A stretch of 64,000 nucleotides of DNA, taken from assembly GCF_053078305.1 (NCBI RefSeq), contig NZ_CP166879.1, one strand, 5' to 3'. The first letter of the stretch is position 1, and the number at the start of each line of letters is the position of its first letter. Of the stretch, positions 2,695 to 61,872 are shown one piece after another. The translations under genes and the position numbers were made by a program. The notes under the pieces are model-generated. The model searched no databases. It was not told the DNA's origin and saw only the letters and a program-made list of their open reading frames with translations.

Positions 2695-4170
2695 TTAAAT
2701 ATGATGAATAATCACTTTGTTGCCCCCCTCGCTTTTCGCTTCGCGTAAGGCTTTATCTGCTTCCGTCATGACAAGCGAGATATTACGCGTGTCACCCGTT
2801 GAAAAAACCGTGCCAATACTGATGGTCATTTGTTCAGGAACATCATATCTGTTACTAAAGCCGGTCAGGAGTTCGACATTTTTACGCATACGTTCCGCAA
2901 TGATTTTTGCCTGGGCACTATTGAGTTCGGTAAATAGCAAGCCAAACACCTCACCCTCCAGTCGCGCTAAAATATCATCGGGGCGGATGCTTTGCTGGAT
3001 AATATCGACAATTGAAACCAGCACTTTATCACCCACACGATGTCCCCATTGGGCATTGATGCGTTTGAACTGATTAATATCAACCAGCATGACACAGAAG
3101 TCCTTAACAACAGGTCGCGACAATAATGACTCTACGCTGTTGAAAAAGTAGCGCCGATTGTAAATATTGGTCAGCACATCATGAACTGCCAGTTTGCTGG
3201 AGAGTTGCAGCTCCTGAAAAATGTTATAAATCAGAAAAGACACAACAAACAGTTTACTGGAGACTTCAATCCCGCGACTGATATACCAGATGGTATAATT
3301 ATACTCATCCAGAGTCAGTAGAAGTAAGTTGCAGCATAGCGATGCCAGACATAATAATGCTATTAACGGCCATAGTTCGCTGGCTAATCGTGTACGCATG
3401 ATAATAAAGAACAGTAAAAATGCCCACAGACAAACCAATATTTTTGTATAGTTGATTCCCCAGGTCGCAGTATGGTTGTCCGGACAGTAATCGACGACAT
3501 ACAAAGAATAGTCAGCGTTATAACTGCTCAGATTGTGTGCCAGAAGGGGAAAAACTAAAAAAGGAATCAGCGCCAGCAACAGAATGCCAGTTTTTTTCTT
3601 ATTGTTGTCAAGGATGTTGTCTTTTCCATAACAAAAGAGCGCCAGCGAGGTTAAACAAATAAAACTGAGTTGGCGGAAAATATAGAAAATAGAAACATCA
3701 TTCGACTTTGTCTGGATCAGTGTACTGCCGTTAATTGGTTTATGGATAATTACAATGGTTTCAACTAAATAGATAAGGCCACTTAAAAATGCAAGGCTTA
3801 AAATGAGTGTTGGTAAAATTTGTTTGTTAGTGAAATATTTCATTAACATGAAAAGAAAAATGACGGCGTTAAGGAAAAACAAAGCCACAACAACCATCAG
3901 GTAATTCATCTGTGGGATGAGTTTTACATTTGTGTTTTCGTTATATAAGGTAGTAATGCAAAATAAAATTAACGTCAGCAATAAACTGAAAATAAAAAAG
4001 CTTTGAGCTTTTAATTTTTGTGTACCCATAGAAACCATAAAAAGGAGAGCAATGTGAGTGCTGGATTTTATTGATGGCAGAGATATATAGTTTTGACCAA
4101 GATCAATTTTCGTTAACGATAAAAAATATTTAAAGAATAACCCCAGGGAAATACGTGTTGACAGAATAAT
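2695..4170 (-). CDS. dgcI: GGDEF-domain protein DgcI/YeaI with degenerate active-site motif (EGEVF); membrane N-terminal domain
   Basis: The ATG-initiated ORF is 2695..4038 (447 aa) and carries RLEGEVF in place of GGDEF. The frame stays open upstream to 4284 with no in-frame ATG/GTG/TTG. The remembered 491-aa length would put the first codon at 4168-4170, which here reads ATT. The start coordinate is therefore uncertain; the stop at 2695 is firm. Confidence 0.8.
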   Translation of the reverse strand: MILSTRISLGLFFKYFLSLTKIDLGQNYISLPSIKSSTHIALLFMVSMGTQKLKAQSFFIFSLLLTLILFCITTLYNENTNVKLIPQMNYLMVVVALFFLNAVIFLFMLMKYFTNKQILPTLILSLAFLSGLIYLVETIVIIHKPINGSTLIQTKSNDVSIFYIFRQLSFICLTSLALFCYGKDNILDNNKKKTGILLLALIPFLVFPLLAHNLSSYNADYSLYVVDYCPDNHTATWGINYTKILVCLWAFLLFFIIMRTRLASELWPLIALLCLASLCCNLLLLTLDEYNYTIWYISRGIEVSSKLFVVSFLIYNIFQELQLSSKLAVHDVLTNIYNRRYFFNSVESLLSRPVVKDFCVMLVDINQFKRINAQWGHRVGDKVLVSIVDIIQQSIRPDDILARLEGEVFGLLFTELNSAQAKIIAERMRKNVELLTGFSNRYDVPEQMTISIGTVFSTGDTRNISLVMTEADKALREAKSEGGNKVIIHHI

Positions 4171-10791: not shown

Positions 10792-11799
<1,008 letters not shown>

Positions 11800-13225: not shown

Positions 13226-14302
13226 ATGAAAGCACTGGCTCGGTTTGGCAAGGCCTTTGGCAGCTACAAGATGATTGATGTCCCACAACCCATGTGTGGC
13301 CCGGAAGATGTAGTGATTGAAATTAAAGCCGCGGCAATCTGCGGCGCAGACATGAAGCACTACAATGTCGATAGCGGTTCTGATGAGTTTAACTCTATCC
13401 GCGGCCATGAGTTCGCAGGTTGTATTGCGCAGGTTGGTGAAAAAGTCAAAGACTGGAAAGTGGGGCAACGCGTCGTGTCGGATAACAGCGGTCACGTTTG
13501 CGGCGTTTGTCCGGCCTGTGAACAGGGTGATTTTCTGTGTTGTACAGAAAAAGTAAACCTTGGTCTGGATAACAATACCTGGGGCGGTGGTTTTTCCAAA
13601 TATTGTCTGGTTCCTGGTGAAATTCTCAAAATTCATCGTCATGCCTTGTGGGAAATCCCTGATGGTGTTGATTATGAGGACGCAGCCGTACTTGACCCTA
13701 TCTGTAATGCCTACAAATCCATCGCGCAGCAATCGAAATTCCTTCCTGGTCAGGATGTGGTCGTCATCGGCACTGGCCCACTCGGGTTGTTCTCCGTACA
13801 AATGGCGCGGATTATGGGGGCGGTAAATATCGTCGTCGTTGGTCTGCAAGAAGATGTGGCGGTCCGCTTCCCGGTTGCAAAAGAACTGGGTGCGACGGCA
13901 GTAGTAAATGGTTCTACCGAAAATGTGGTGGCGCGCTGCCAGCAAATATGTGGCAAAGACAATCTGGGACTGGTGATTGAATGCTCCGGTGCCAATATCG
14001 CATTGAAACAAGCCATCGAAATGCTCCGCCCGAACGGGGAAGTGGTACGCGTTGGAATGGGCTTCAAACCTCTTGATTTCTCGATTAATGACATTACCGC
14101 CTGGAACAAAAGCATCATTGGGCATATGGCCTATGACTCAACCTCATGGCGTAACGCTATCAGGCTATTAGCCAGCGGCGCTATCAAAGTCAAACCGATG
14201 ATCACGCATCGTATCGGCCTGTCGCAATGGCGCGAAGGGTTTGATGCGATGGTCGATAAAACCGCAATCAAAGTGATCATGACTTACGACTTTGATGAAT
14301 AA
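13226..14302 (+). CDS. ydjL: Zn-dependent medium-chain alcohol/polyol dehydrogenase YdjL (358 aa)
   Basis: 358-aa ORF with a GHEFAG zinc-binding motif and a GTGPLG Rossmann motif. Confidence 0.9.
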   Translation: MKALARFGKAFGSYKMIDVPQPMCGPEDVVIEIKAAAICGADMKHYNVDSGSDEFNSIRGHEFAGCIAQVGEKVKDWKVGQRVVSDNSGHVCGVCPACEQGDFLCCTEKVNLGLDNNTWGGGFSKYCLVPGEILKIHRHALWEIPDGVDYEDAAVLDPICNAYKSIAQQSKFLPGQDVVVIGTGPLGLFSVQMARIMGAVNIVVVGLQEDVAVRFPVAKELGATAVVNGSTENVVARCQQICGKDNLGLVIECSGANIALKQAIEMLRPNGEVVRVGMGFKPLDFSINDITAWNKSIIGHMAYDSTSWRNAIRLLASGAIKVKPMITHRIGLSQWREGFDAMVDKTAIKVIMTYDFDE

Positions 14303-14328
14303 CAACTTTCCTGAAGGAACGTTATCGC

Positions 14329-15708
14329 ATGGAACAGATAACAAAACCGCATTGTGGTGCACGGCTGGATCGCTTACCGGATTGCCGCTGGCATTCATCA
14401 ATGTTTGCCATCGTCGCGTTTGGCTTGCTTGTCTGCTGGAGTAATGCCGTTGGTGGCTTGATCCTCGCGCAGCTGAAAGCGTTGGGCTGGACAGATAATT
14501 CCACCACAGCCACATTCTCAGCAATCACGACCGCCGGAATGTTTCTCGGTGCGCTGGTGGGCGGCATCATTGGCGACAAAACCGGTCGCAGAAATGCGTT
14601 CATCCTCTATGAGGCCATTCATATTGCCTCGATGGTTGTCGGTGCTTTCTCACCGAATATGGATTTCCTTATTGCCTGCCGTTTTGTGATGGGAGTTGGG
14701 CTGGGAGCTTTACTGGTTACGCTGTTTGCTGGTTTCACCGAATATATGCCCGGTAGAAATCGTGGAACGTGGTCAAGTCGGGTTTCCTTTATTGGCAACT
14801 GGTCATATCCGCTCTGTTCATTGATAGCGATGGGACTCACGCCGCTGATTAGTGCAGAGTGGAACTGGCGGGTACAACTGCTTATCCCTGCAATATTGTC
14901 GCTTATCGCTACGGCGCTGGCCTGGCGCTACTTTCCTGAATCCCCGCGCTGGCTGGAATCGCGCGGACGGTATCAGGAAGCCGAGAAAGTCATGCGGAGT
15001 ATAGAAGAAGGCGTCATACGCCAGACAGGTAAACCTTTGCCGCCCGTGGTTATTGCTGATGACGGTAAAGCACCACAAGCGGTGCCATATTCAGCCTTAC
15101 TGACAGGAGTATTACTGAAACGCGTGATATTAGGCTCTTGTGTGCTGATTGCCATGAACGTTGTGCAGTACACACTAATTAACTGGTTGCCAACGATATT
15201 CATGACCCAGGGGATTAATTTAAAAGACTCGATTGTTTTAAATACCATGAGTATGTTTGGCGCGCCATTTGGCATTTTTATTGCCATGCTGGTGATGGAT
15301 AAAATTCCGCGTAAAACAATGGGTGTGGGGCTATTAATCCTGATTGCGGTGCTCGGATATATCTATTCACTGCAAACCAGCATGTTGCTCATAACGTTGA
15401 TTGGTTTCTTCCTGATTACTTTCGTCTATATGTACGTTTGCTATGCCTCGGCAGTGTATGTCCCTGAGATCTGGCCGACAGAGGCCAAACTCCGTGGCTC
15501 CGGTCTGGCGAATGCGGTAGGGCGAGTCAGTGGTATTGCCGCACCTTATGCCGTTGCAGTGCTGCTCAGTAGTTATGGCGTTACGGGAGTCTTTATTCTT
15601 CTGGGGGCGGTTTCAATTATTGTCGCAATTGCTATCGCCACCATTGGAATCGAAACCAAAGGTGTCTCCGTTGAAAGTTTAAGTATTGATGCAGTAGCCA
15701 ATAAATAA
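14329..15708 (+). CDS. ydjK: MFS-family sugar transporter YdjK (459 aa)
   Basis: 459-aa polytopic membrane protein, recognised as YdjK. Confidence 0.9.
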   Translation: MEQITKPHCGARLDRLPDCRWHSSMFAIVAFGLLVCWSNAVGGLILAQLKALGWTDNSTTATFSAITTAGMFLGALVGGIIGDKTGRRNAFILYEAIHIASMVVGAFSPNMDFLIACRFVMGVGLGALLVTLFAGFTEYMPGRNRGTWSSRVSFIGNWSYPLCSLIAMGLTPLISAEWNWRVQLLIPAILSLIATALAWRYFPESPRWLESRGRYQEAEKVMRSIEEGVIRQTGKPLPPVVIADDGKAPQAVPYSALLTGVLLKRVILGSCVLIAMNVVQYTLINWLPTIFMTQGINLKDSIVLNTMSMFGAPFGIFIAMLVMDKIPRKTMGVGLLILIAVLGYIYSLQTSMLLITLIGFFLITFVYMYVCYASAVYVPEIWPTEAKLRGSGLANAVGRVSGIAAPYAVAVLLSSYGVTGVFILLGAVSIIVAIAIATIGIETKGVSVESLSIDAVANK

Positions 15709-15724
15709 TACGGGTGGATTCAAA

Positions 15725-16768
15725 ATGAAAAATTCAAAAGCAATATTGCAGGTGCCGGGCACAATGAAAATTATTTCAGCAGAAATACCAGTGCCTAAAG
15801 AAGATGAAGTTTTGATTAAAGTAGAATATGTCGGTATTTGTGGTTCAGATGTACATGGTTTTGAATCAGGTCCGTTTATTCCGCCTAAAGACCCAAATCA
15901 AGAAATTGGCCTGGGTCATGAATGCGCCGGGACGGTTGTGGCTGTGGGAAGCCGCGTGCGCAAATTTAAACCGGGGGATCGGGTAAATATCGAACCTGGC
16001 GTTCCTTGCGGTCACTGTCGTTACTGTCTGGAAGGCAAATATAACATCTGCCCGGACGTTGATTTTATGGCGACACAACCCAACTACCGCGGCGCATTAA
16101 CGCACTATCTGTGTCATCCGGAGAGCTTTACTTACAAACTGCCCGACAATATGGACACGATGGAAGGGGCGCTGGTGGAGCCTGCCGCAGTCGGGATGCA
16201 TGCCGCGATGCTGGCAGATGTTAAACCGGGTAAGAAGATAATTATTCTGGGAGCGGGTTGTATTGGTTTGATGACGTTGCAAGCGTGCAAATGCCTGGGA
16301 GCAACGGAAATTGCCGTCGTTGATGTGCTGGAAAAACGTCTGACAATGGCGGAACAGCTTGGTGCGACAGTGGTTATTAACGGCGCAAAAGAAGACACTA
16401 TTGCACGCTGTCAGCAATTTACCGAAGACATGGGCGCAGATATTGTTTTCGAAACAGCGGGTTCTGCGGTCACCGTTAAACAGGCACCTTATCTGGTAAT
16501 GCGCGGCGGTAAAATTATGATTGTTGGTACTGTACCCGGCGATTCGGCAATCAATTTCCTCAAAATCAATCGCGAAGTCACTATCCAGACGGTATTCCGC
16601 TATGCCAATCGTTATCCGGTCACGATTGAAGCTATTTCTTCAGGGCGATTCGATGTGAAATCGATGGTGACACATATTTACGATTACCGTGATGTACAAC
16701 AGGCATTTGAAGAGTCGGTTAACAACAAACGCGACATTATTAAAGGCGTTATTAAAATTAGCGATTAA
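15725..16768 (+). CDS. ydjJ: Zn-dependent alcohol dehydrogenase YdjJ (347 aa)
   Basis: 347-aa ORF with GHECAG and GAGCIG motifs. Confidence 0.9.
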   Translation: MKNSKAILQVPGTMKIISAEIPVPKEDEVLIKVEYVGICGSDVHGFESGPFIPPKDPNQEIGLGHECAGTVVAVGSRVRKFKPGDRVNIEPGVPCGHCRYCLEGKYNICPDVDFMATQPNYRGALTHYLCHPESFTYKLPDNMDTMEGALVEPAAVGMHAAMLADVKPGKKIIILGAGCIGLMTLQACKCLGATEIAVVDVLEKRLTMAEQLGATVVINGAKEDTIARCQQFTEDMGADIVFETAGSAVTVKQAPYLVMRGGKIMIVGTVPGDSAINFLKINREVTIQTVFRYANRYPVTIEAISSGRFDVKSMVTHIYDYRDVQQAFEESVNNKRDIIKGVIKISD

Positions 16769-16788
16769 TTAATACGGGAGAACAGAAC

Positions 16789-17625
16789 ATGCTCGCAGAT
16801 ATCAGATATTGGGAAAACGATGCCACAAATAAACATTATGCAATTGCCCATTTTAACGTATGGAATGCAGAAATGTTGATGGGCGTTATCGACGCAGCCG
16901 AAGAAGCGAAATCCCCGGTTATTATTTCTTTTGGTACAGGTTTTGTCGGCAACACCTCATTTGAAGATTTCTCTCACATGATGGTATCAATGGCACGAAA
17001 AGCAACTGTGCCGGTAATAACTCATTGGGATCATGGTCGGAGTATGGAGATTATTCATAACGCCTGGACTCATGGTATGAATTCATTAATGCGTGATGCT
17101 TCCGCATTTGATTTCGAAGAAAATATTCGTTTAACCAAAGAGGCTGTTGATTTCTTCCATCCGCTGGGTATTCCGGTAGAGGCGGAATTAGGGCATGTCG
17201 GTAATGAAACCGTTTATGAGGAAGCTCTGGCGGGCTATCACTATACCGATCCTGACCAGGCGGCTGAATTTGTTGAACGTACGGGCTGTGACTCATTGGC
17301 TGTCGCCATCGGCAACCAGCATGGGGTTTATACGTCAGAGCCACAATTGAACTTTGAGGTCGTCAAACGCGTACGCGATGCCGTGTCTGTTCCGCTGGTT
17401 TTGCATGGCGCATCGGGGATCAGTGATGCCGACATTAAAACTGCAATTTCGTTAGGTATCGCGAAAATCAACATCCATACGGAGCTCTGTCAGGCCGCAA
17501 TGGTCGCAGTGAAAGAAAACCAGGATCAGCCTTTCCTGCATTTAGAACGTGAAGTACGTAAAGCTGTAAAAGAACGGGCATTGGAAAAAATTAAACTGTT
17601 CGGTTCTGATGGCAAAGCGGAATAA
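16789..17625 (+). CDS. ydjI: Class II ketose-bisphosphate aldolase family protein YdjI (278 aa)
   Basis: 278-aa ORF, recognised as YdjI. Confidence 0.9.
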   Translation: MLADIRYWENDATNKHYAIAHFNVWNAEMLMGVIDAAEEAKSPVIISFGTGFVGNTSFEDFSHMMVSMARKATVPVITHWDHGRSMEIIHNAWTHGMNSLMRDASAFDFEENIRLTKEAVDFFHPLGIPVEAELGHVGNETVYEEALAGYHYTDPDQAAEFVERTGCDSLAVAIGNQHGVYTSEPQLNFEVVKRVRDAVSVPLVLHGASGISDADIKTAISLGIAKINIHTELCQAAMVAVKENQDQPFLHLEREVRKAVKERALEKIKLFGSDGKAE

Positions 17626-17629
17626 TGAT

Positions 17630-18577
17630 ATGGATAATCTCGACGTTATTTGTATAGGTGCCGCTATTGTTGATATTCCATTGCAACCGGTCAGTAAAAA
17701 TATCTTTGATGTGGATTCTTATCCTCTTGAAAGAATCGCAATGACCACCGGGGGTGATGCAATAAATGAAGCAACAATTATTTCTCGTCTGGGCCATCGT
17801 ACAGCATTAATGAGTCGTGTTGGTAAAGATGCCGCAGGACAATTTATTCTCGACCATTGCCGCAAAGAGAATATTGATATTCAAAGCCTGAAACAGGACG
17901 TCAGCATAGATACCTCTATTAACGTTGGACTGGTGACGGAGGATGGCGAGCGGACGTTTGTCACAAACCGTAACGGCAGTCTGTGGAAATTGAATATTGA
18001 CGATGTTGATTTTTCGCGGTTTTCTCAGGCGAAATTATTATCACTGGCCAGTATTTTCAACAGTCCTCTATTGGATGGTAGAGCGCTAACAGAAATTTTT
18101 ACGCAAGCTAAAGCCCGGCAGATGATTATCTGTGCCGATATGATCAAACCGCGGTTGAATGAAACGCTGGATGATATTTGCGAAGCATTGAGTTATGTCG
18201 ATTATCTGTTTCCTAATTTTGCCGAGGCAAAATTACTCACCGGGAAAGAGAGACTGGATGAAATTGCTGACTGCTTTCTTGCGTGCGGCGTAAAAACGGT
18301 GGTGATTAAAACGGGTAAAGACGGCTGCTTTATCAAGCGTGGTGACATGACGATAAAGGTGCCAGCGGTCGCAGGAATAACCGCCATCGACACCATTGGC
18401 GCGGGCGATAACTTTGCTTCAGGTTTTATTGCGGCACTGTTAGAAGGCAAAAATCTGCGTGAATGCGCACGCTTTGCCAATGCAACGGCGGCTATCTCAG
18501 TTCTAAGCGTCGGTGCCACCACCGGTGTAAAAAACAGAAAGCTGGTCGAACAATTGCTGGAAGAATACGAAGGATAA
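17630..18577 (+). CDS. ydjH: PfkB-family sugar kinase YdjH (315 aa)
   Basis: Start at the ATG at 17630 (MDNLDVICIGAA...), 4 nt after the ydjI stop; GAGD motif near the C-terminus. Confidence 0.9.
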   Translation: MDNLDVICIGAAIVDIPLQPVSKNIFDVDSYPLERIAMTTGGDAINEATIISRLGHRTALMSRVGKDAAGQFILDHCRKENIDIQSLKQDVSIDTSINVGLVTEDGERTFVTNRNGSLWKLNIDDVDFSRFSQAKLLSLASIFNSPLLDGRALTEIFTQAKARQMIICADMIKPRLNETLDDICEALSYVDYLFPNFAEAKLLTGKERLDEIADCFLACGVKTVVIKTGKDGCFIKRGDMTIKVPAVAGITAIDTIGAGDNFASGFIAALLEGKNLRECARFANATAAISVLSVGATTGVKNRKLVEQLLEEYEG

Positions 18578-18586
18578 TGAAGGCAA

Positions 18587-19567
18587 ATGAAAAAGATACC
18601 TTTAGGCACAACGGATATAACGCTTTCGCGAATGGGTTTGGGGACATGGGCCATTGGCGGCGGTCCTGCATGGAATGGCGATCTCGATCGGCAAATATGT
18701 ATTGATACGATTCTTGAAGCCCATCGTTGCGGCATTAATCTGATTGATACTGCACCAGGATATAACTTTGGCAATAGTGAAGTTATCGTCGGTCAGGCGT
18801 TAAAAAAACTGCCCCGTGAACAGGTTGTAGTAGAAACCAAATGCGGCATTGTCTGGGAACGAAAAGGAAGTTTATTCAACAAAGTTGGCGATCGGCAGTT
18901 GTATAAAAACCTTTCCCCGGAATCTATCCGCGAAGAGGTAGAAGCCAGCTTGCAACGTCTGGGTATTGATTACATCGATATCTACATGACGCACTGGCAG
19001 TCGGTGCCGCCATTTTATACGCCGATCGCTGAAACTGTCGCAGTGCTTAATGAGTTAAAGGCTGAAGGGAAAATTCGCGCTATAGGCGCTGCTAACGTCG
19101 ATGCTGACCATATCCGCGAGTATCTGCAATATGGTGAACTGGATATTATTCAGGCGAAATACAGTATCCTCGACCGGGCAATGGAAAACGAACTGCTGCC
19201 GCTATGTCGTGATAATGGCATTGTGGTTCAGGTTTATTCCCCGCTAGAGCAGGGATTGTTGACCGGCACCATCACTCGTGATTACGTTCCGGGCGGCGCT
19301 CGGGCAAATAAAGTCTGGTTCCAGCGTGAAAACATGCTGAAAGTGATTGATATGCTTGAACAGTGGCAGCCACTTTGTGCTCGTTATCAGTGCACAATTC
19401 CCACTCTGGCACTGGCGTGGATATTAAAACAGAGTGATTTAATCTCCATTCTTAGTGGGGCTACTGCACCGGAACAGGTACGCGAAAATGTCGCGGCACT
19501 GAATATCAACTTATCGGATGCAGACGCAACATTGATGAGGGAAATGGCAGAGGCCCTGGAGCGTTAA
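18587..19567 (+). CDS. ydjG: Aldo-keto reductase YdjG (326 aa)
   Basis: 326-aa ORF of the aldo-keto reductase family, recognised as YdjG. Confidence 0.9.
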   Translation: MKKIPLGTTDITLSRMGLGTWAIGGGPAWNGDLDRQICIDTILEAHRCGINLIDTAPGYNFGNSEVIVGQALKKLPREQVVVETKCGIVWERKGSLFNKVGDRQLYKNLSPESIREEVEASLQRLGIDYIDIYMTHWQSVPPFYTPIAETVAVLNELKAEGKIRAIGAANVDADHIREYLQYGELDIIQAKYSILDRAMENELLPLCRDNGIVVQVYSPLEQGLLTGTITRDYVPGGARANKVWFQRENMLKVIDMLEQWQPLCARYQCTIPTLALAWILKQSDLISILSGATAPEQVRENVAALNINLSDADATLMREMAEALER

Positions 19568-19703
19568 ATACTCAACACGATTCACCTCTGTTTCTGTGAA
19601 AACTGTGATGAAAATCTGTGATTCAAACAGGTTATTTTGAAAGTAAACATCGGTTATGCGATAATCGCGCTAATGTGATGTAAAAAGATACAGGGGTGTA
19701 ATC

Positions 19704-20462
19704 GTGGCGGCAAAAGACAGGATTCAGGCAATTAAGCAAATGGTTGCCAACGATAAAAAGGTGACAGTCTCAAATTTGAGTGGGATTTTTCAGGTAACCG
19801 AAGAAACCATTCGCCGCGATCTTGAGAAGCTGGAAGATGAAGGCTTTTTGACCAGAACCTATGGTGGTGCTGTTTTAAATACAGCGATGTTGACGGAGAA
19901 TATCCATTTTTATAAGCGCGCTTCATCGTTTTATGAAGAGAAGCAGCTTATTGCACGCAAGGCACTACCCTTTATCGACAATAAAACCACCATGGCAGCC
20001 GATTCCAGTAGTACCGTAATGGAATTGCTCAAATTGTTACAGGACCGTAGTGACCTGACGTTGCTAACCAACTCGGCGGAAGCGATTCATGTTCTGGCTC
20101 AGTCAGAAATTAAAGTCGTTTCAACGGGTGGGGAACTAAACAAAAATACACTTTCACTGCAAGGAAGAATTACTAAAGAGATCATCAGCCGCTATCATGT
20201 CGATATCATGGTAATGAGTTGTAAAGGTCTTGATATTAACAGCGGCGCGCTGGACTCTAATGAAGCGGAAGCTGAAATCAAAAAGACAATGATCCGTCAG
20301 GCGACAGAAGTTGCGTTATTGGTTGATCACTCTAAGTTTGATCGCAAAGCTTTTGTCCAGTTAGCTGACTTTAGTCATATTAATTACATAATAACTGATA
20401 AATCACCGGGTGCAGAGTGGATAGCATTTTGCAAAGACAATAATATCCAGCTGGTGTGGTAA
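19704..20462 (+). CDS. ydjF: DeoR-family transcriptional regulator YdjF (252 aa)
   Basis: GTG-initiated 252-aa ORF; an N-terminal helix-turn-helix region followed by a sugar-binding domain. Confidence 0.9.
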   Translation: MAAKDRIQAIKQMVANDKKVTVSNLSGIFQVTEETIRRDLEKLEDEGFLTRTYGGAVLNTAMLTENIHFYKRASSFYEEKQLIARKALPFIDNKTTMAADSSSTVMELLKLLQDRSDLTLLTNSAEAIHVLAQSEIKVVSTGGELNKNTLSLQGRITKEIISRYHVDIMVMSCKGLDINSGALDSNEAEAEIKKTMIRQATEVALLVDHSKFDRKAFVQLADFSHINYIITDKSPGAEWIAFCKDNNIQLVW

Positions 20463-20579
20463 TTTAAGCACACGTTGTCAATATTATTTGTTCCTGCGCC
20501 TGGAAATAAAATGATGATAAAGATGCGGCAAGTGAATTTGCCGCAATTGCTACCTTTTTTAGCAAATCCGAGGCACCCA

Positions 20580-21938
20580 ATGGAACAATATGATCAAATT
20601 GGCGCAAGACTGGACCGCTTGCCTTTGGCCCGGTTTCATTATCGTATATTTGGTATTATAAGCTTTAGTCTGTTATTAACAGGGTTTTTGAGTTACTCCG
20701 GTAATGTCGTCTTAGCAAAGCTGGTAAGCAATGGATGGTCAAATAATTTCCTCAATGCCGCCTTTACCTCGGCATTAATGTTTGGTTATTTCATCGGCTC
20801 TCTTACCGGTGGGTTCATCGGTGATTACTTTGGGCGGCGCAGGGCGTTTCGCATAAATCTTCTCATCGTCGGTATTGCTGCAACAGGGGCCACTTTTGTC
20901 CCTGATATGTACTGGCTCATCTTCTTTCGCTTCCTGATGGGAACAGGAATGGGTGCGCTGATTATGGTTGGCTATGCCTCATTTACGGAGTTTATCCCCG
21001 CGACGGTGCGTGGAAAATGGTCCGCGCGGCTCTCATTTGTTGGTAACTGGTCGCCCATGCTGTCTGCGGCGATAGGTGTGGTGGTTATCGCTTTTTTTAG
21101 TTGGCGGATAATGTTTCTGCTGGGTGGTATTGGCATACTGTTAGCCTGGTTTCTTTCAGGTAAATACTTTATTGAGTCGCCACGATGGCTGGCAGGGAAA
21201 GGGCAAATCGCAGGTGCAGAAAGCCAACTTCGTGAAGTAGAGCAGCAAATTGAAAGAGAGAAGAGTATTCGTTTACCCCCGCTTACTTCGTATCAGAGCA
21301 ACAGCAAGGTTAAAGTAATCAAGGGTACTTTCTGGCTCCTGTTTAAAGGTGAAATGTTACGACGTACATTAGTCGCGATTACTGTTTTAATTGCAATGAA
21401 CATTTCGCTTTATACCATCACCGTATGGATACCGACCATATTTGTTAACTCCGGCATTGATGTCGATAAATCAATATTAATGACCGCTGTTATTATGATT
21501 GGCGCTCCGGTAGGAATATTTATTGCGGCATTAATTATTGATCATTTTCCTCGTCGGTTATTTGGCTCCACCTTACTTATTATTATTGCCGTGTTAGGCT
21601 ATATCTATTCAATTCAGACTACAGAGTGGGCGATTTTAATCTATGGCCTGGTGATGATCTTCTTTTTATACATGTATGTTTGCTTCGCGTCGGCGGTTTA
21701 TATCCCGGAGCTTTGGCCAACGCATTTACGCCTGCGCGGTTCGGGTTTCGTTAATGCCGTCGGACGGATCGTCGCAGTCTTCACGCCCTATGGCGTTGCG
21801 GCATTATTAACACATTATGGGTCGATCACGGTGTTTATGGTACTTGGTGTCATGTTATTGCTCTGTGCGCTGGTTCTCTCCATTTTTGGCATCGAAACGC
21901 GGAAGGTGTCGTTGGAAGAGATTTCTGAGGTGAATTAA
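20580..21938 (+). CDS. ydjE: MFS-family transporter YdjE (452 aa)
   Basis: Track ORF 20475..21938; start chosen at the ATG at 20580 (MEQYDQIGARLDRLP...) to give 452 aa. Confidence 0.85.
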   Translation: MEQYDQIGARLDRLPLARFHYRIFGIISFSLLLTGFLSYSGNVVLAKLVSNGWSNNFLNAAFTSALMFGYFIGSLTGGFIGDYFGRRRAFRINLLIVGIAATGATFVPDMYWLIFFRFLMGTGMGALIMVGYASFTEFIPATVRGKWSARLSFVGNWSPMLSAAIGVVVIAFFSWRIMFLLGGIGILLAWFLSGKYFIESPRWLAGKGQIAGAESQLREVEQQIEREKSIRLPPLTSYQSNSKVKVIKGTFWLLFKGEMLRRTLVAITVLIAMNISLYTITVWIPTIFVNSGIDVDKSILMTAVIMIGAPVGIFIAALIIDHFPRRLFGSTLLIIIAVLGYIYSIQTTEWAILIYGLVMIFFLYMYVCFASAVYIPELWPTHLRLRGSGFVNAVGRIVAVFTPYGVAALLTHYGSITVFMVLGVMLLLCALVLSIFGIETRKVSLEEISEVN

Positions 21939-27441: not shown

Positions 27442-29403
27442 ATGCGGTTGTTTATTGCCGAAAAACCGAGTCTGGCGCGCGCCATTGCGGATGTCCTGCC
27501 CAAACCGCACCGTAAAGGCGATGGCTTTATCGAGTGCGGTAATGGTCAGGTGGTGACCTGGTGTATCGGTCACCTGCTTGAGCAGGCGCAGCCAGACGCC
27601 TACGACAGCCGCTATGCGCGCTGGAATCTTGCGGATTTGCCGATTGTCCCGGAAAAGTGGCAATTACAGCCCCGACCCTCCGTGACCAAACAACTTAACG
27701 TCATCAAACGGTACCTGCATGAAGCCAGCGAAATCGTTCACGCCGGGGACCCGGATCGCGAAGGGCAACTGCTGGTGGATGAAGTGCTGGACTATCTACA
27801 ACTGGCACCGGAAAAGCGCCAGCAGGTGCAGCGTTGCTTGATAAACGACCTGAACCCGCAGGCGGTTGAGCGGGCGATCGACCGTCTTCGTTCCAACAGT
27901 GAGTTTGTACCGCTGTGCGTTTCTGCGCTGGCGCGAGCGCGTGCCGACTGGCTATACGGCATCAACATGACCCGTGCGTATACCATTCTCGGTCGCAATG
28001 CCGGTTATCAGGGCGTACTTTCCGTGGGACGCGTGCAGACACCCGTGCTCGGGCTGGTGGTGCGCCGCGATGAAGAGATTGAAAACTTCGTGGCGAAAGA
28101 CTTCTTTGAAGTCAAAGCGCATATCGTGACACCTGCCGATGAGCGGTTTACCGCTATCTGGCAACCGAGCGAAGCGTGTGAACCGTACCAGGATGAAGAA
28201 GGGCGCTTGTTACATCGTCCACTGGCGGAGCATGTGGTTAACCGCATTAGTGGTCAACCGGCTATAGTCACTAGCTATAACGATAAACGGGAATCAGAAT
28301 CCGCGCCGCTGCCTTTTTCGCTTTCGGCGTTGCAGATTGAAGCGGCAAAACGTTTTGCTCTGAGTGCGCAGAACGTGCTTGATATCTGCCAGAAGCTGTA
28401 CGAAACACACAAGCTAATCACTTATCCGCGTTCCGATTGTCGCTATTTGCCAGAAGAACATTTTGCCGGACGCCACGCGGTGATGAATGCCATCAGCGTT
28501 CATGCACCAGATCTGTTGCCGCAGCCAGTGGTAGATCCAGATATACGCAACCGCTGTTGGGATGACAAAAAGGTCGATGCGCACCACGCCATCATCCCGA
28601 CCGCACGGAGTTCTGCGATCAACCTGACGGAGAACGAAGCGAAGGTCTATAACCTTATTGCCCGTCAGTACTTGATGCAGTTCTGCCCGGATGCGGTGTT
28701 CCGCAAGTGTGTTATCGAACTGGACATTGCCAAAGGCAAATTTGTCGCTAAAGCGCGTTTTCTTGCTGAAGCAGGTTGGCGCGCGCTGTTAGGCAGCAAA
28801 GAGCGCGATGAAGAAAACGACGGCACGCCACTGCCTGTGGTGGCGAAAGGCGATGAGTTGCTGTGTGAAAAAGGTGAAGTGGTAGAGCGGCAAACCCAGC
28901 CGCCTCGCCATTTTACCGATGCAACACTGCTTTCGGCGATGACCGGGATCGCGCGCTTTGTGCAGGACAAAGATCTGAAAAAGATCCTTCGTGCGACCGA
29001 TGGTCTGGGGACAGAAGCAACGCGTGCCGGGATTATTGAACTGTTGTTCAAGCGTGGTTTCCTCACCAAAAAAGGGCGCTATATCCACTCCACCGACGCC
29101 GGAAAAGCGTTATTCCATTCGCTGCCAGAAATGGCTACGCGACCGGACATGACCGCGCACTGGGAATCGGTGCTGACGCAAATCAGCGAAAAGCAGTGTC
29201 GCTATCAGGACTTTATGCAGCCGCTGGTGGGGACGCTATATCAGCTTATTGATCAAGCCAAACGTACTCCGGTGCGGCAGTTTCGCGGCATTGTGGCTCC
29301 GGGCAGTGGTGGCAGTGCTGATAAGAAAAAGGCTGCACCGCGTAAACGTAGTGCGAAAAAAAGTCCGCCAGCAGATGAAGCCGGAAGCGGGGCGATAGCG
29401 TAA
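27442..29403 (+). CDS. topB: DNA topoisomerase III (653 aa)
   Basis: Start at the ATG at 27442 ([19 protein letters not shown]...), 4 nt after the selD stop. Confidence 0.95.
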
Positions 29404-29530
29404 GCGAGCGAATCTTTCGTGCTATTCGAGTCATATTCTGAAATATCCAGCGGATCAAGAAAATTCGTTGGATATTTTTTTTGCATGGATAAAATTATCG
29501 CCTCTAAAGTATGTAATAACAGGGAATGTG

Positions 29531-30571
29531 ATGAAAAAAGTTTTATTACAAAACCATCCTGGGAGCGAGAAGTATTCTTTTAATGGCTGGGAAATATTTA
29601 ATAGTAATTTTGAACGGATGATTAAAGAAAATAAGACCATGCTGCTTTGTAAGTGGGGGTTTTATTTAACATGTGTTGTCGCTGTAATGTTTGTATTCGC
29701 AGCGATAACATCCAACGGTTTGAATGAAAGAGGCCTGATTACCGCGGGATGCTCTTTTCTTTATCTATTAATTATGATGGGGCTTATTGTTCGGGCCGGT
29801 TTTAAAGCAAAAAAAGAACAGCTGCATTATTATCAGGCTAAAGGTATTGAGCCGCTCAGTATCGAGAAATTACAGGCGCTACAATTGATCGCACCTTATC
29901 GATTCTATCATAAGCAATGGTCTGAAACGCTGGAGTTCTGGCCGCGAAAGCCTGAACCTGGCAAAGATACCTTCCAATATCATGTGCTTCCTTTTGACTC
30001 GATCGATATCATAAGTAAAAGACGCGAGTCTTTAGAGGATCAATGGGGTATCGAAGATAGCGAAAGTTATTGTGCCTTAATGGAGCATTTTCTTTCTGGC
30101 GACCATGGAGCCAATACCTTTAAAGCAAACATGGAGGAAGCCCCAGAGCAGGTTATCGCCTTGTTGAATAAATTTGCTGTTTTTCCCTCAGACTATATCT
30201 CTGATTGCGCTAATAATCGCTCCGGTAAATCCTCGGCGAAGCTAATATGGGCGGCGGAATTATCATGGATGATCTCGATATCAAGCACAGCTTTTCAAAA
30301 CGGGACAATTGAAGAAGAACTGGCCTGGCATTATATAATGCTTGCTTCTCGAAAGGCGCACGAGTTGTTCGAAAGCGAAGAAGATGATCAAAAAAATAGT
30401 CTAATGGGATTTCTTTACTGGCATATCTGCTGCTATCGCAGAAAGTTAACGGATGCTGAACTTGAAGCGTGTTATCATTACGATAAGCAGTTTTGGGAGC
30501 ACTACAGTAAGAAATGCCGTTGGCCCATAAGAAATGTTCCCTGGGGAGCATCATCTGTTAAATACTCATAA
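29531..30571 (+). CDS. ynjI: DUF1266-family inner-membrane protein YnjI (346 aa)
   Basis: ATG at 29531 (MKKVLLQNHP...); visibly AT-rich coding sequence. Confidence 0.8.
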   Translation: MKKVLLQNHPGSEKYSFNGWEIFNSNFERMIKENKTMLLCKWGFYLTCVVAVMFVFAAITSNGLNERGLITAGCSFLYLLIMMGLIVRAGFKAKKEQLHYYQAKGIEPLSIEKLQALQLIAPYRFYHKQWSETLEFWPRKPEPGKDTFQYHVLPFDSIDIISKRRESLEDQWGIEDSESYCALMEHFLSGDHGANTFKANMEEAPEQVIALLNKFAVFPSDYISDCANNRSGKSSAKLIWAAELSWMISISSTAFQNGTIEEELAWHYIMLASRKAHELFESEEDDQKNSLMGFLYWHICCYRRKLTDAELEACYHYDKQFWEHYSKKCRWPIRNVPWGASSVKYS

Positions 30572-30585
30572 ACGCCTGAAATTTT

Positions 30586-30679
30586 GCCGGGGGCGCTGCG
30601 CTTGCCCGGCCTACATTAGAGCGTAACTGCAATGAATTGTGCCCATTTGTAGGCCTGATAAGCGTAGCGCCATCAGGCA
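30586..30679. repeat. REP/BIME-type palindromic repeats in the ynjI-gdhA intergenic region
   Basis: Two GC-rich imperfect palindromes of REP type: gccgggggcgctgcgcttgcccggcctaca and gtaggcctgataagcgtagcgccatcaggc. Confidence 0.6.
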
Positions 30680-30687
30680 TTTACAAC

Positions 30688-32031
30688 TTAAATCACACCC
30701 TGCGCCAGCATCGCATCGGCAACCTTCACAAAACCGGCAATGTTCGCGCCCTGAACGTAGTTGGTTTGCTCACCTTCACCACCATGCTCAACACAGGCAT
30801 GGTGGATATCCAGCATGATGTGATGCAAACGTGCATCAACTTTCTCGGCTTTCCAGCCCAGGCGCGCAGCGTTTTGTGCCATTTCCAGGCCTGACGTTGC
30901 TACACCGCCAGCATTAGCCGCTTTACCCGGTGCAAACAGTACGCCTGCCTGCTGGAACAGTTCAGTCGCTTCGATGGTGGTCGGCATATTTGCCCCTTCG
31001 GCGACGGCTTTAACGCCATTAGCGATAAGCTGATGCGCGGCGTCAACATCCAGTTCGTTCTGGGTAGCGCAAGGCAGGGCGATATCAACCGGTACAGACC
31101 ACGGCTGTTGGCCTTCGAGATAGACCAGACCAAATTCTTTGGCGTAATCTGCCACTCGACCATCGCGGCTGGCTTTGATTTCGATAAGACGTGCCAGTTT
31201 CTCTTTCGTGAATCCGCTTTCATCAACTACAGTGCCGCTGGAGTCTGACGCAGTGATCACACGAGCACCAAATTCCATCGCTTTTTCGATAGCGTACTGG
31301 GCGACGTTGCCGGAGCCAGAAACGGAAACGCGCATCCCTTCAAAACCCATACCGTGGCGTTTTAGCATTGCTTCTGTGAAATAAACCAGACCGTAGCCGG
31401 TAGCTTCCGGGCGAATAAGACTGCCGCCAAATGAAAGGCCCTTACCGGTGAAGACGCAGGCGGTATTGTTGGAGAGCTTTTTCATCATCCCCGCCATAAA
31501 GCCGACTTCACGACCACCAACCCCGATATCACCTGCCGGAACGTCGGTATCCGCGCCCAGGTGGCGATACAGTTCAGTCATCAGCGCCTGGCAAAAACGC
31601 ATCACTTCACCTTCGCTTTTTCCTTTCGGATCGAAATCGCTGCCGCCTTTACCACCGCCCATCGGCAGAGTAGTCAGGGCATTTTTGAAGGTTTGTTCAA
31701 AGCCGAGGAATTTGAGAATGGAAAGGTTAACTGACGGATGGAAGCGCATACCGCCTTTGTACGGGCCGATGGCAGAGCTGAACTGCACACGCCATGCACG
31801 GTTGACCTGTACCTGATTGCGATCATCAACCCATACCACGCGAAACTGGATCACGCGCTCCGGTTCAACCAGACGCTCCAGTAATGACATCTGGCGATAT
31901 TTTGGATTTTGTTCAAGAAAAGGCCAGAGTGTGGTCATTACTTCACGAACGGCTTGCGCGAACTCGGTTTGATTCGGGTCGCGCTTTTGGACATGGTTGA
32001 GGAATGACTCCAGAGAATATGTCTGATCCAT
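30688..32031 (-). CDS. gdhA: NADP-specific glutamate dehydrogenase (447 aa)
   Basis: MDQTYSLESFLNHVQKRDPNQTEFAQAVREV...; 447 aa. Confidence 0.97.
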   Translation of the reverse strand: MDQTYSLESFLNHVQKRDPNQTEFAQAVREVMTTLWPFLEQNPKYRQMSLLERLVEPERVIQFRVVWVDDRNQVQVNRAWRVQFSSAIGPYKGGMRFHPSVNLSILKFLGFEQTFKNALTTLPMGGGKGGSDFDPKGKSEGEVMRFCQALMTELYRHLGADTDVPAGDIGVGGREVGFMAGMMKKLSNNTACVFTGKGLSFGGSLIRPEATGYGLVYFTEAMLKRHGMGFEGMRVSVSGSGNVAQYAIEKAMEFGARVITASDSSGTVVDESGFTKEKLARLIEIKASRDGRVADYAKEFGLVYLEGQQPWSVPVDIALPCATQNELDVDAAHQLIANGVKAVAEGANMPTTIEATELFQQAGVLFAPGKAANAGGVATSGLEMAQNAARLGWKAEKVDARLHHIMLDIHHACVEHGGEGEQTNYVQGANIAGFVKVADAMLAQGVI

Positions 32032-60780: not shown

Positions 60781-61068
60781 GGATTACGTACCTCCCGGTT
60801 TTGCCGGGAGTTACATGGCCTGAAATTTTGTATTTCATTGCTACATTCATTCAAACCACCTGTAACAAAAAGCTGCCTTTGACGATCTATTGCTATAAAT
60901 AAGTGATCTTTTTTCTTTAATTGTTTATTTATTTTAAAATGGTTAAGTTTTGCTAATCATGATGAGCTATTTTTGATAGTTCATCCTGTGGCGTCGCTCT
61001 TAAACTTATATTGTAAATGACTTAGATTTAAATGAGATAATAATTTTGTTAACAATATGAGGCGGGAG

Positions 61069-61872
61069 ATGTTTTCTACAAACTTAATACAGAGTAATTA
61101 TGGTGATTTAAATATTAAAAGCCTGGCTTTCGACTCTTTTAAAGAAAGGCTGCAGTCTACCATGGCGGCACTCACTTTCTTTATATCAACGGGTCAATGT
61201 GACTGCGATGAAATAGCAGAATCAAATTTTAATTATATGATTGCCTATATGTCTAACATTAACTATGATGCCTCAAAGCCAGGAGCGCCAGCACTTAGTT
61301 TTGATACATATCTGCAGGACAATGTTAAATATAGAGTAATAATTAATAATCTTTATGGTAGTGAAATTCGGATAAGAGGTATAAATAAAGATTTTATTGG
61401 AATGGATGTTACTTCTGTATTTCGCCCAGAAAAAATGACCAATTTGATCAGTATAAAAAACAGGTTGGTTATTCACTATTTAAGGACTATATACTATGAA
61501 CAAAATTATATACATCCTGTCGGGAGCATTTTTGCTGCGATTCAAAAAAATGAGAGTCTCCTAAAGTTTCCTTCGATAATATCAATGCTTAATATCAATC
61601 TTCTTTTTAATCCACTAAATCTTCCGGGAATGGGAAGTGGTATACTTGAAGATATTATGAGTATTCCAGATAGTTCACTTAGAAAACGTCTCGGGTATGA
61701 GGTTTTAAGCTTCTCGCTACAGGCACATTCATTGAGCCAGGAATGTATTGATAAGTTGGACATTTTTTTCGCTGACGATCTGTTTAAATATGAGTCAGTA
61801 TGCATCGCCGCGATGGAACATTTAAAAAGTAAGGCAACGGCCCCTATACAAAACGGACCGTTGCCAGCATAA
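61069..61872 (+). CDS. ydjO: Uncharacterized protein YdjO (about 267 aa), AT-rich orphan gene
   Basis: ATG at 61069 preceded by a GGCGGGAG Shine-Dalgarno (the track ORF starts at 61057); very AT-rich coding sequence. Confidence 0.75.
   Translation: MFSTNLIQSNYGDLNIKSLAFDSFKERLQSTMAALTFFISTGQCDCDEIAESNFNYMIAYMSNINYDASKPGAPALSFDTYLQDNVKYRVIINNLYGSEIRIRGINKDFIGMDVTSVFRPEKMTNLISIKNRLVIHYLRTIYYEQNYIHPVGSIFAAIQKNESLLKFPSIISMLNINLLFNPLNLPGMGSGILEDIMSIPDSSLRKRLGYEVLSFSLQAHSLSQECIDKLDIFFADDLFKYESVCIAAMEHLKSKATAPIQNGPLPA

Follow-up and report, generated by a model that had tools for sequence, protein, structure and literature searches.

Is a gene whose composition looks foreign necessarily a recent arrival, or can it keep such a composition while remaining for a long time in one place? 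This question is raised by ynjI, an AT-rich gene that lies between topB and gdhA in a 64,000-nucleotide stretch of the Escherichia coli chromosome (contig NZ_CP166879.1 of assembly GCF_053078305.1). We refer to this whole stretch as the window, and positions are counted from its first letter. A first-pass annotation had described ynjI as an AT-rich island encoding a DUF1266 membrane protein, followed by repeats, and had proposed that the gene was horizontally acquired and is probably silenced by H-NS. We find that interpretation about half right. The reading that we consider probable sees ynjI as an intact accessory gene maintained by purifying selection, an old low-GC resident of a recombination-exchanged topB-gdhA slot that has at least four states, and as silenced by H-NS/StpA. 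Published work had already shown that ynjI is a silent gene that BglJ-RcsB activates and H-NS/StpA modulate; the polymorphism of the slot and an association between DUF1266 and HscC are, in our view, modest leads.

The ynjI coding sequence (29531-30571, plus strand; 346 amino acids) and its leader form an island of 1168 bp, 29404-30571, that starts at the first base past the topB stop codon (29403) and ends at the ynjI stop codon. Its guanine-plus-cytosine (GC) content is 0.404, against 0.495 for the entire window, and only 3.1% of all 1168-bp intervals in the 64 kb have a GC content as low. Both edges are sharp: over 200 bp to either side, GC falls from 0.55 to 0.34 at the left edge (29404), and it rises from 0.395 to 0.535 at the right edge (30572). 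The coding sequence has a GC content of 0.409, both overall and at third codon positions, compared with 0.551 and 0.586 for topB and 0.531 and 0.538 for gdhA, and is third lowest in GC among the 53 open reading frames (ORFs) of the window. Codon usage is atypical as well. Rare codons (counted as AGA, AGG, ATA, CTA, CGA, CGG, GGA and CCC) make up 7.8% of its codons, the highest fraction among the 29 ORFs that are 300 amino acids or longer, whose median is 3.4%. Compared with the remainder of the window, ynjI has a Karlin codon bias of 0.39, where other long ORFs lie at about 0.2-0.3, with the exception of the ORF at 10792-11787 (0.82). The first-pass claim that ynjI and its leader are far more AT-rich than the flanking genes is thus confirmed.

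One explanation of such a gene is that it is a recent foreign insertion, AT-rich for lack of time to drift, and silenced by H-NS. Besides the low GC and the atypical codon usage, this explanation can draw on the absence of ynjI from 36% of E. coli genomes and from Salmonella and Pseudescherichia vulneris, on a tiny family (8 clusters in one search and 82 matches in another) with scattered relatives in Hafnia, Ignatzschineria and Flavobacteriia, and on derepression of the gene in an hns stpA mutant. However, a second genus has orthologues in this very slot; they are equally low in GC, and their synonymous divergence (dS) equals that of the flanking genes. The GC content of ynjI is 0.42-0.43 in Escherichia sp. 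MOD1-EC7003 and Pseudocitrobacter vendiensis, where the flanks have 0.53-0.58, and it is 0.39-0.44 in orthologues from gut metagenomes. Between the window and a cryptic Escherichia (locus L009), dS is 0.29 for ynjI and 0.13-0.73 for the flanks, and the ratio of nonsynonymous to synonymous divergence (dN/dS) of ynjI is 0.15; between the window and P. vendiensis (locus L010), the corresponding values are 1.08, 0.93-2.3 and 0.09. (The dN values of sppA against the distant loci are alignment artefacts and were disregarded.) Since the same-slot orthologues show flank-like dS and the same low GC, we conclude that ynjI is old, with a composition that has not drifted to that of its host. It could have been in the slot since the Escherichia and Pseudocitrobacter lineages parted or, alternatively, gene and flanks could have moved as a unit in the distant past.

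A recent insertion also fits poorly with the lack of mobility genes, repeats, tRNA genes and plasmid or phage copies. There are no flanking direct repeats at ynjI and no tRNA gene within 10 kb, the annotation of E. coli loci with an intact slot state shows neither an integrase nor a transposase, and searches of plasmid and phage records returned no genuine copy of ynjI. Two candidate copies were rejected: NZ_OL790696.1, a "plasmid" in PLSDB, is a 4.8-Mb E. coli record, and OR844794.1 ("Escherichia phage ECO111 5-P", 1937 bp) carries a stretch that matches host ynjI at 100% identity; both represent host DNA or database artefacts and are no mobile copies. Moreover, the empty form of the slot offers no clean pre-insertion site, and the 3' end of topB is as diverged between forms of the locus as between genera (see below). 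Because ynjI co-diverges with its flanks, we consider the recent-import explanation largely refuted, and quite unlikely to be correct. Horizontal acquisition as the first-pass annotation had it, if understood as recent insertion, therefore does not hold up against the missing mobility signature, the syntenic orthologues and the flank-like dS. Judging from these comparisons, ynjI looks foreign in composition without being a recent arrival.

This conclusion carries a caution, namely that low GC and sharp edges are insufficient for calling a gene a recent import, given that ynjI has stayed close to a GC content of 0.41 while occupying a single syntenic slot in different genera. The AT island of ynjI is also not unique in the window, where there are deeper troughs at cdgI and ydjO. 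The cdgI gene (2695-4038) has a GC content of 0.39, below that of ynjI, yet is found in 5411 of 5426 complete E. coli genomes, the set in which all distributions within the species were determined. Because cdgI is nearly universal, AT-richness alone is no predictor of accessory status. The other trough, ydjO (61057-61872), has a GC content of 0.354 and is covered over at least 80% of its length in only 4240 of the 5426 genomes.

We next consider what occupies the space between topB and gdhA. The allele of ynjI that is present in the window, which we call allele A, is found in 3485 of the 5426 genomes. The slot is empty in 1514, e.g., strain SaT040, with a 76-bp spacer and a single, different repetitive extragenic palindromic (REP) element. 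In 369 genomes, including CFT073, 042 and 83972, the slot holds a cassette of two genes, annotated as "Hsp70 family protein" and "J domain-containing / SEL1-like repeat protein". A second allele, allele B, whose protein is 68% identical to that of allele A, is found in 13 genomes; by subtraction, about 45 have other states, such as disruption by an insertion sequence (IS) or rearrangement. Examples of the cassette are at L023:305-3945 (E. coli WP3-W18-CRE-03) and L024:5857-8252, and in Klebsiella oxytoca it also occupies the topB-gdhA slot (L021:12253-15923); its position corresponds to 29404-30687 of the window. In Salmonella enterica and P. vulneris the slot is empty.

Outside E. coli, the YnjI subfamily is very rare. 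Among 5.8 billion protein clusters, a search turned up 8, and when 1.84 billion representatives were searched exhaustively, there were 82 matches, mostly fragments of the E. coli protein, while the remaining matches are full-length proteins of 340-400 amino acids with 22-34% identity. Named distant relatives come from Hafnia, Ignatzschineria, Sinomicrobium and Aquimarina. A scan with two peptide patterns, run on a single genome for each of 100,044 species, returned no E. coli locus and identified orthologues in Escherichia sp. MOD1-EC7003 (90% identity) and P. vendiensis (81%). Its third match was a YnjI fragment, 98% identical to that of E. coli, on a 926-bp contig (L011, NZ_ABFU01000109.1) of Bacillus coahuilensis m4-4, which is most likely E. 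coli contamination. Three more alleles, with 80%, 61% and 58% identity, are found on gut-metagenome contigs from other Enterobacteriaceae. All orthologues, i.e., allele B and those of the cryptic Escherichia, P. vendiensis and the metagenome contigs, share the topB-gdhA location. The survey thus shows ynjI to be an accessory gene of E. coli that was detected in hardly any other species.

How could a gene that lacks mobility signatures come to be present in some strains and absent in others? The two ends of the slot suggest an answer. The last ~200 bp of topB, at about 29200-29403 (plus strand), encode a Lys-rich C-terminal tail that varies with the state of the slot. Over these ~200 bp, the window and E. 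coli with an empty slot have 67-82% identity, compared with 95-99% upstream. The TopB tail encoded in the window shares 86% identity with its counterpart in P. vendiensis, which also bears ynjI, but only 68% with the tail of empty-slot E. coli and 48% with the tail of E. coli with the Hsp70 cassette. The sequence of the tail thus co-segregates with the content of the slot across genera. Because the tail is conserved with ynjI and hypervariable between haplotypes, part of a housekeeping gene travels with the cargo of the slot. From the same comparison, the empty haplotype is neither a simple deletion nor a pre-insertion site.

Allele B provides a second line of evidence. This mosaic gene (L003:6001-7032) occurs in 13 complete genomes, e.g., NZ_CP090448.1. 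Its flanks, promoter, first ~40 codons and downstream repeats are 94-100% identical to the window, whereas in the body of the gene, where the segment at about 29650-30575 of the window (plus strand) has been replaced, DNA identity drops to 55-75%. Synonymous divergence is saturated in the body, with a proportion of synonymous differences (pS) of 0.75-0.92, against 0.01-0.13 in the flanks. Allele B is close to no lineage that was sampled, the best match being P. vendiensis at 69% amino acid identity. Because a saturated body lies between near-identical flanks, exchange between lineages does occur at the slot.

We therefore propose that the presence/absence pattern reflects the exchange of divergent haplotype blocks, which is how the comparisons above are most readily read. 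Whole blocks, including the last ~200 bp of topB, would change places through homologous recombination within the two core genes topB and gdhA, and this exchange would proceed without a mobile element. The alternatives present in E. coli are allele A, the rare mosaic allele B, the empty slot and the cassette of an HscC-like Hsp70 with a J-domain/Sel1 protein. The locus is a compact case of a core-flanked slot with several ancient haplotypes, whose divergence reaches into the end of a housekeeping gene.

A gene that is silent in laboratory conditions and is often lost might instead be a decaying remnant, AT-rich and patchily distributed through relaxed selection and mutational AT bias. Insertions in ynjI of IS1 (strain 1008S19) and of IS10 (a heat-evolved K-12 strain) are in line with such decay, as is a common truncated form of 264 amino acids (P0004, 752 member sequences). 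However, dN/dS is 0.09-0.15 over long divergences, the ORF is full-length in 3485 genomes and across genera, and 122 of the 346 alignment columns are invariant across five orthologues with 58-100% identity. A confident structural model of the protein likewise argues against decay, and we regard the remnant explanation as highly improbable. From its pattern of substitution, we conclude that ynjI is functional and under purifying selection.

An IS1 lies inside ynjI in strain 1008S19 (NZ_CP147050.1), and another inside the J-domain gene of the cassette in strain ECE170 (L024:8272-8969), where gdhA and further genes have seemingly been deleted and spy is next. These interruptions would fit reports that transposition is drawn to H-NS-bound AT-rich DNA. 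In the heat-evolved K-12 strain, IS10 insertions were found in both ydjO and ynjI (PMC10044804).

What kind of protein is being maintained? YnjI matches the Pfam family DUF1266 (PF06889) over amino acids 167-338, with an E-value of 7.1e-24 and a score of 85.4 bits against a cut-off of 27, and the match spans the full 175-position model. It also matches the NCBIfam model for YnjI equivalogs (PRK11380) over amino acids 1-346, with 663 bits against a cut-off of 386. A model made with AlphaFold2 (AF2) from 55 family members is all-helical, with a predicted local distance difference test (pLDDT) score of 92 and a predicted template modelling (pTM) score of 0.89. In this model, a conserved N-terminal motif (LQNHPG...SFNGWEIFN) precedes a helical hairpin, at about amino acids 36-60 and 66-104, that holds two hydrophobic segments. 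A conserved linker, QWSETLEFWPRKP, then leads to the all-helical DUF1266 bundle. The hydrophobic stretches are flanked by residues rich in K and R. We therefore predict that YnjI is an inner-membrane protein anchored by a two-helix hairpin, with transmembrane segments at about amino acids 36-60 and 66-90. To judge from the positive charges beside the hairpin, the N and C termini would both lie in the cytoplasm. An experimental membrane assignment of YnjI is cited in PMC3950696. The first-pass description of ynjI as encoding a DUF1266 membrane protein is thus well founded in both family matches and in the predicted transmembrane hairpin.

Other sources say little about function. A structure search found no solved structure that resembles the model, and a scan of YnjI against PHROG gave no match. 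Published mentions of ynjI elsewhere are lists and screens that hold no functional information: an overexpression screen for alanine exporters (first round only), a list of genes related to Dictyostelium grazing and the list of IS10 insertions.

The variability of the slot could be taken to mean that ynjI is a conflict gene, e.g., for phage defense or as an immunity or effector gene, and that the slot is a hotspot of the kind seen for defense systems, with the hairpin as an effector that disrupts membranes and DUF1266 as sensor. The mutually exclusive cargo, its AT-richness and silencing, and the allelic replacement from a very distant lineage would suit such a role. The neighborhoods of distant relatives also point in this direction. 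In Ignatzschineria, YnjI-like genes adjoin a gene for a YobI-type NTPase of 1145 amino acids (L025:318-3755) and unannotated genes, and in Aquimarina sp. BL5 (L026) they lie within a same-strand array of small unannotated genes with GIY-YIG proteins. These YnjI-like proteins have about 30% identity to YnjI and the same architecture, and their contexts resemble variable or conflict-type regions. In addition, the transmembrane hairpin has, over amino acids 44-118, a weak match (E-value 0.017) to a PADLOC model of a DRT-associated SLATT protein (RTasSLATT). However, this match is at noise level, covers hydrophobic helices and has no counterpart in allele B, and it probably reflects hydrophobic composition. 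Neither PADLOC-DB nor PHROG gave a significant match to YnjI, PADLOC-DB gave nothing for allele B, and the Hsp70 cassette also has no convincing match to defense models. Furthermore, ynjI stands alone, with no partner genes, in Escherichia and Hafnia, and no phenotype is on record. On balance, a role in conflict is very unlikely.

The remaining element of our preferred reading, that of an old accessory gene in an exchanged slot, is silencing by H-NS/StpA. These proteins hold the AT-rich promoter and body of ynjI nearly silent. According to the supplement of an RNA-seq study (PMC4288151), b1762 has a log2 fold change of -4.63 (p 7e-43) in wild type relative to an hns stpA mutant, i.e., a derepression of about 25-fold, while the neighboring genes are nearly flat (gdhA -0.36, topB +1.0). 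We confirmed that b1762 is ynjI. In addition, ynjI mRNA increases strongly with constitutive BglJ, and in a triple mutant of hns, stpA and bglJ it is "moderately increased" (PMC3950696). The first-pass suggestion that the gene is probably silenced by H-NS is therefore supported by published expression data. However, bglJ itself is H-NS-repressed (PMC3950696), so some of the ~25-fold rise is probably an indirect effect exerted by way of bglJ. Direct binding of H-NS at ynjI is suggested by a count of 7 H-NS-motif-like sites in the 1168 bp, compared with about 2 expected from the density in the window (about 3.5-fold), although this enrichment is weak evidence because it is expected from AT-richness alone.

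Activation by BglJ-RcsB was established by Salscheider et al. (2014, PMC3950696), who showed that a lacZ fusion of the topB-ynjI intergenic promoter is activated, that mutating the predicted BglJ-RcsB box abolishes activation at ynjI, and that the box is centered 65-68 nucleotides upstream of the ynjI transcription start site. The region in question (29404-29530, plus strand) comprises the ynjI promoter and leader and has a GC content of about 0.34, beginning at the GC step noted above. Within it, the sequence TATTCTGA at 29434-29441 (plus strand) fits the wwTTCykA core motif of the BglJ-RcsB box at every position, and we take this to be the site of the box. A putative sigma-70 promoter at 29468-29495 (plus strand) consists of a -35 element TTGGAT (29468-29473) and a -10 element TAAAAT (29490-29495) with a 16-bp spacer; a strict consensus promoter scan did not call these elements. 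The start site would then be near 29503, a placement that reproduces the published spacing of 65-68 nucleotides.

Also in this region is an inverted repeat (29440-29478, plus strand) with 15-nucleotide arms at 29441-29455 and 29463-29477 that are 87% complementary, followed by a run of T. Just past topB, it resembles a terminator of that gene. It overlaps the putative -35 element of ynjI as well as the region adjoining the BglJ-RcsB box. Because the terminator-like repeat overlaps the promoter, it is possible that topB termination and ynjI initiation are coupled.

Two further observations concern H-NS-repressed genes other than ynjI. The ORFs at 13226-21938 of the window, which we take to be ydjLKJIHGFE, have a GC content of 0.42-0.50, no higher than the window mean of 0.50, and from the K-12 gene order the ORF at 20511-21938 is presumably ydjE, or b1769. 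In the hns stpA data, b1769 is derepressed about as much as ynjI (log2 fold change -4.57; PMC4288151). In strain 042, a DUF1266 gene is repressed by H-NS and H-NS2 and is 308-fold up in an hns mutant at 25 °C. Because the slot of strain 042 holds the Hsp70 cassette, this gene is probably not ynjI but one of ybeR and ybeU.

The genes ybeR and ybeU bring us to the second lead, which concerns what DUF1266 proteins might do. In K-12, both are DUF1266 genes that overlap a downstream J-protein gene by 4 bp, forming the pairs ybeR-djlB and ybeU-djlC, and these pairs adjoin hscC and two Sel1-repeat genes. The YnjI family profile aligns with YbeU in hhalign with a probability of 94% and an E-value of 1e-7. 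The cassette that is an alternative to ynjI in the slot encodes related components: its Hsp70 is 43% identical to K-12 HscC, and its second protein is a DjlC-like J domain, 33% identical to that of DjlC, fused to Sel1 repeats. It has been proposed that HscC works on membrane proteins, at their cytosolic domains (PMC8215388). DUF1266 thus co-occurs with HscC, J-domain and Sel1 proteins both at the hscC locus and, through the alternative cargo, at the topB-gdhA slot, and this co-occurrence offers a lead for two poorly understood components, namely the DUF1266 proteins and the role of HscC.

Our guess, in which we have low confidence, is that YnjI is a membrane-tethered adaptor or client module of an HscC-type Hsp70/J-protein machinery. 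A more far-reaching version would unite all of the above: the slot would be a long-lived, possibly trans-species polymorphism whose occupants, YnjI and the HscC-like Hsp70 with its J/Sel1 partner, are functionally related modules of a specialised membrane-associated Hsp70 system, DUF1266 would be a hitherto unrecognised adaptor or client domain for chaperones of the HscC type, YnjI would be a self-anchored version of YbeR-DjlB or YbeU-DjlC, and selection for H-NS-gated expression dependent on BglJ-RcsB would have maintained the AT-richness. We think this scheme unlikely.

Several points weigh against the interpretations that we favor, and they should be considered together. Regarding age, vertical descent needs many independent losses, e.g., in Salmonella, P. 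vulneris and most of the species representatives, and an ancient transfer of the whole block between genera, including the flanks, is an alternative. The species scan, because of its two patterns and one genome per species, undercounts strain-variable genes. Regarding silencing, the derepression that is seen in cells that lack bglJ is only moderate, and thus direct silencing may be modest. No direct occupancy by H-NS in chromatin immunoprecipitation data was found at ynjI in the supplements searched, with PMC4720273 and PMC11335895 having no entry for ynjI. Regarding the chaperone link, pairwise BLASTP comparisons of YnjI with YbeU and YbeR are not significant, and neither an Hsp70 gene nor a J-protein gene adjoins the YnjI-like genes of Hafnia, Ignatzschineria and Aquimarina. 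The same is true of ynjI itself, and the evidence for the link consists of gene neighborhood and shared occupancy of the slot.

The wider setting of the locus is as follows. The gene order in this part of the E. coli chromosome is ydjA, selD, topB, ynjI, gdhA, ynjH, nudG, ynjF and ynjE, and the RefSeq annotation gives topB and gdhA as the neighbors of ynjI. The topB gene (27442-29403, plus strand) encodes DNA topoisomerase III, and gdhA (30688-32031, minus strand), which encodes an NADP-specific glutamate dehydrogenase, is convergent with ynjI and forms the right-hand core flank of the slot. Between the stop codons of ynjI and gdhA, at 30585-30687, are two REP-like palindromic units with the core GTAGGCC on both strands. 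Their arms, which lie at 30592-30615 and 30648-30671 with 32 nucleotides between them, show 83% complementarity. Because the two units are in inverted orientation, we classify them together as a bacterial interspersed mosaic element (BIME), in agreement with the first-pass report of REP/BIME repeats downstream of ynjI.

Finally, we compare ynjI with known systems. It belongs with the K-12 loci that H-NS/StpA silence and BglJ-RcsB activates, such as bgl, leuO, chiA, yecT, ynbA and molR, and it is one of ten additional targets named in PMC3950696, a study that does not treat the composition, population distribution or protein of ynjI. Like those loci, ynjI has a mapped BglJ-RcsB site and increased mRNA in an hns stpA mutant, but unlike chiA or yidL, its repression by H-NS/StpA is only "moderate" in the absence of bglJ (PMC3950696). 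At the protein level, YnjI shares the Pfam DUF1266 core with YbeR and YbeU. However, those proteins have 235 amino acids and are encoded by genes that overlap genes for tail-anchored J-proteins, whereas YnjI has 346 amino acids, carries its own N-terminal motif and transmembrane hairpin, and is encoded alone. With classical genomic islands and other xenogeneic targets, ynjI shares low GC, atypical codons, variability among strains and derepression in the absence of H-NS/StpA. Unlike such islands, it is a single gene in about 1.2 kb that has no integrase, tRNA gene, direct repeat or mobile copy and that occupies one slot across genera. A further parallel is with the hotspots of pan-genomes, as the topB-gdhA slot likewise has two core flanks and mutually exclusive contents that include an empty state. 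It differs from these hotspots in that exchange seems to take in the 3' end of topB, and its haplotypes are as diverged as those of different genera.

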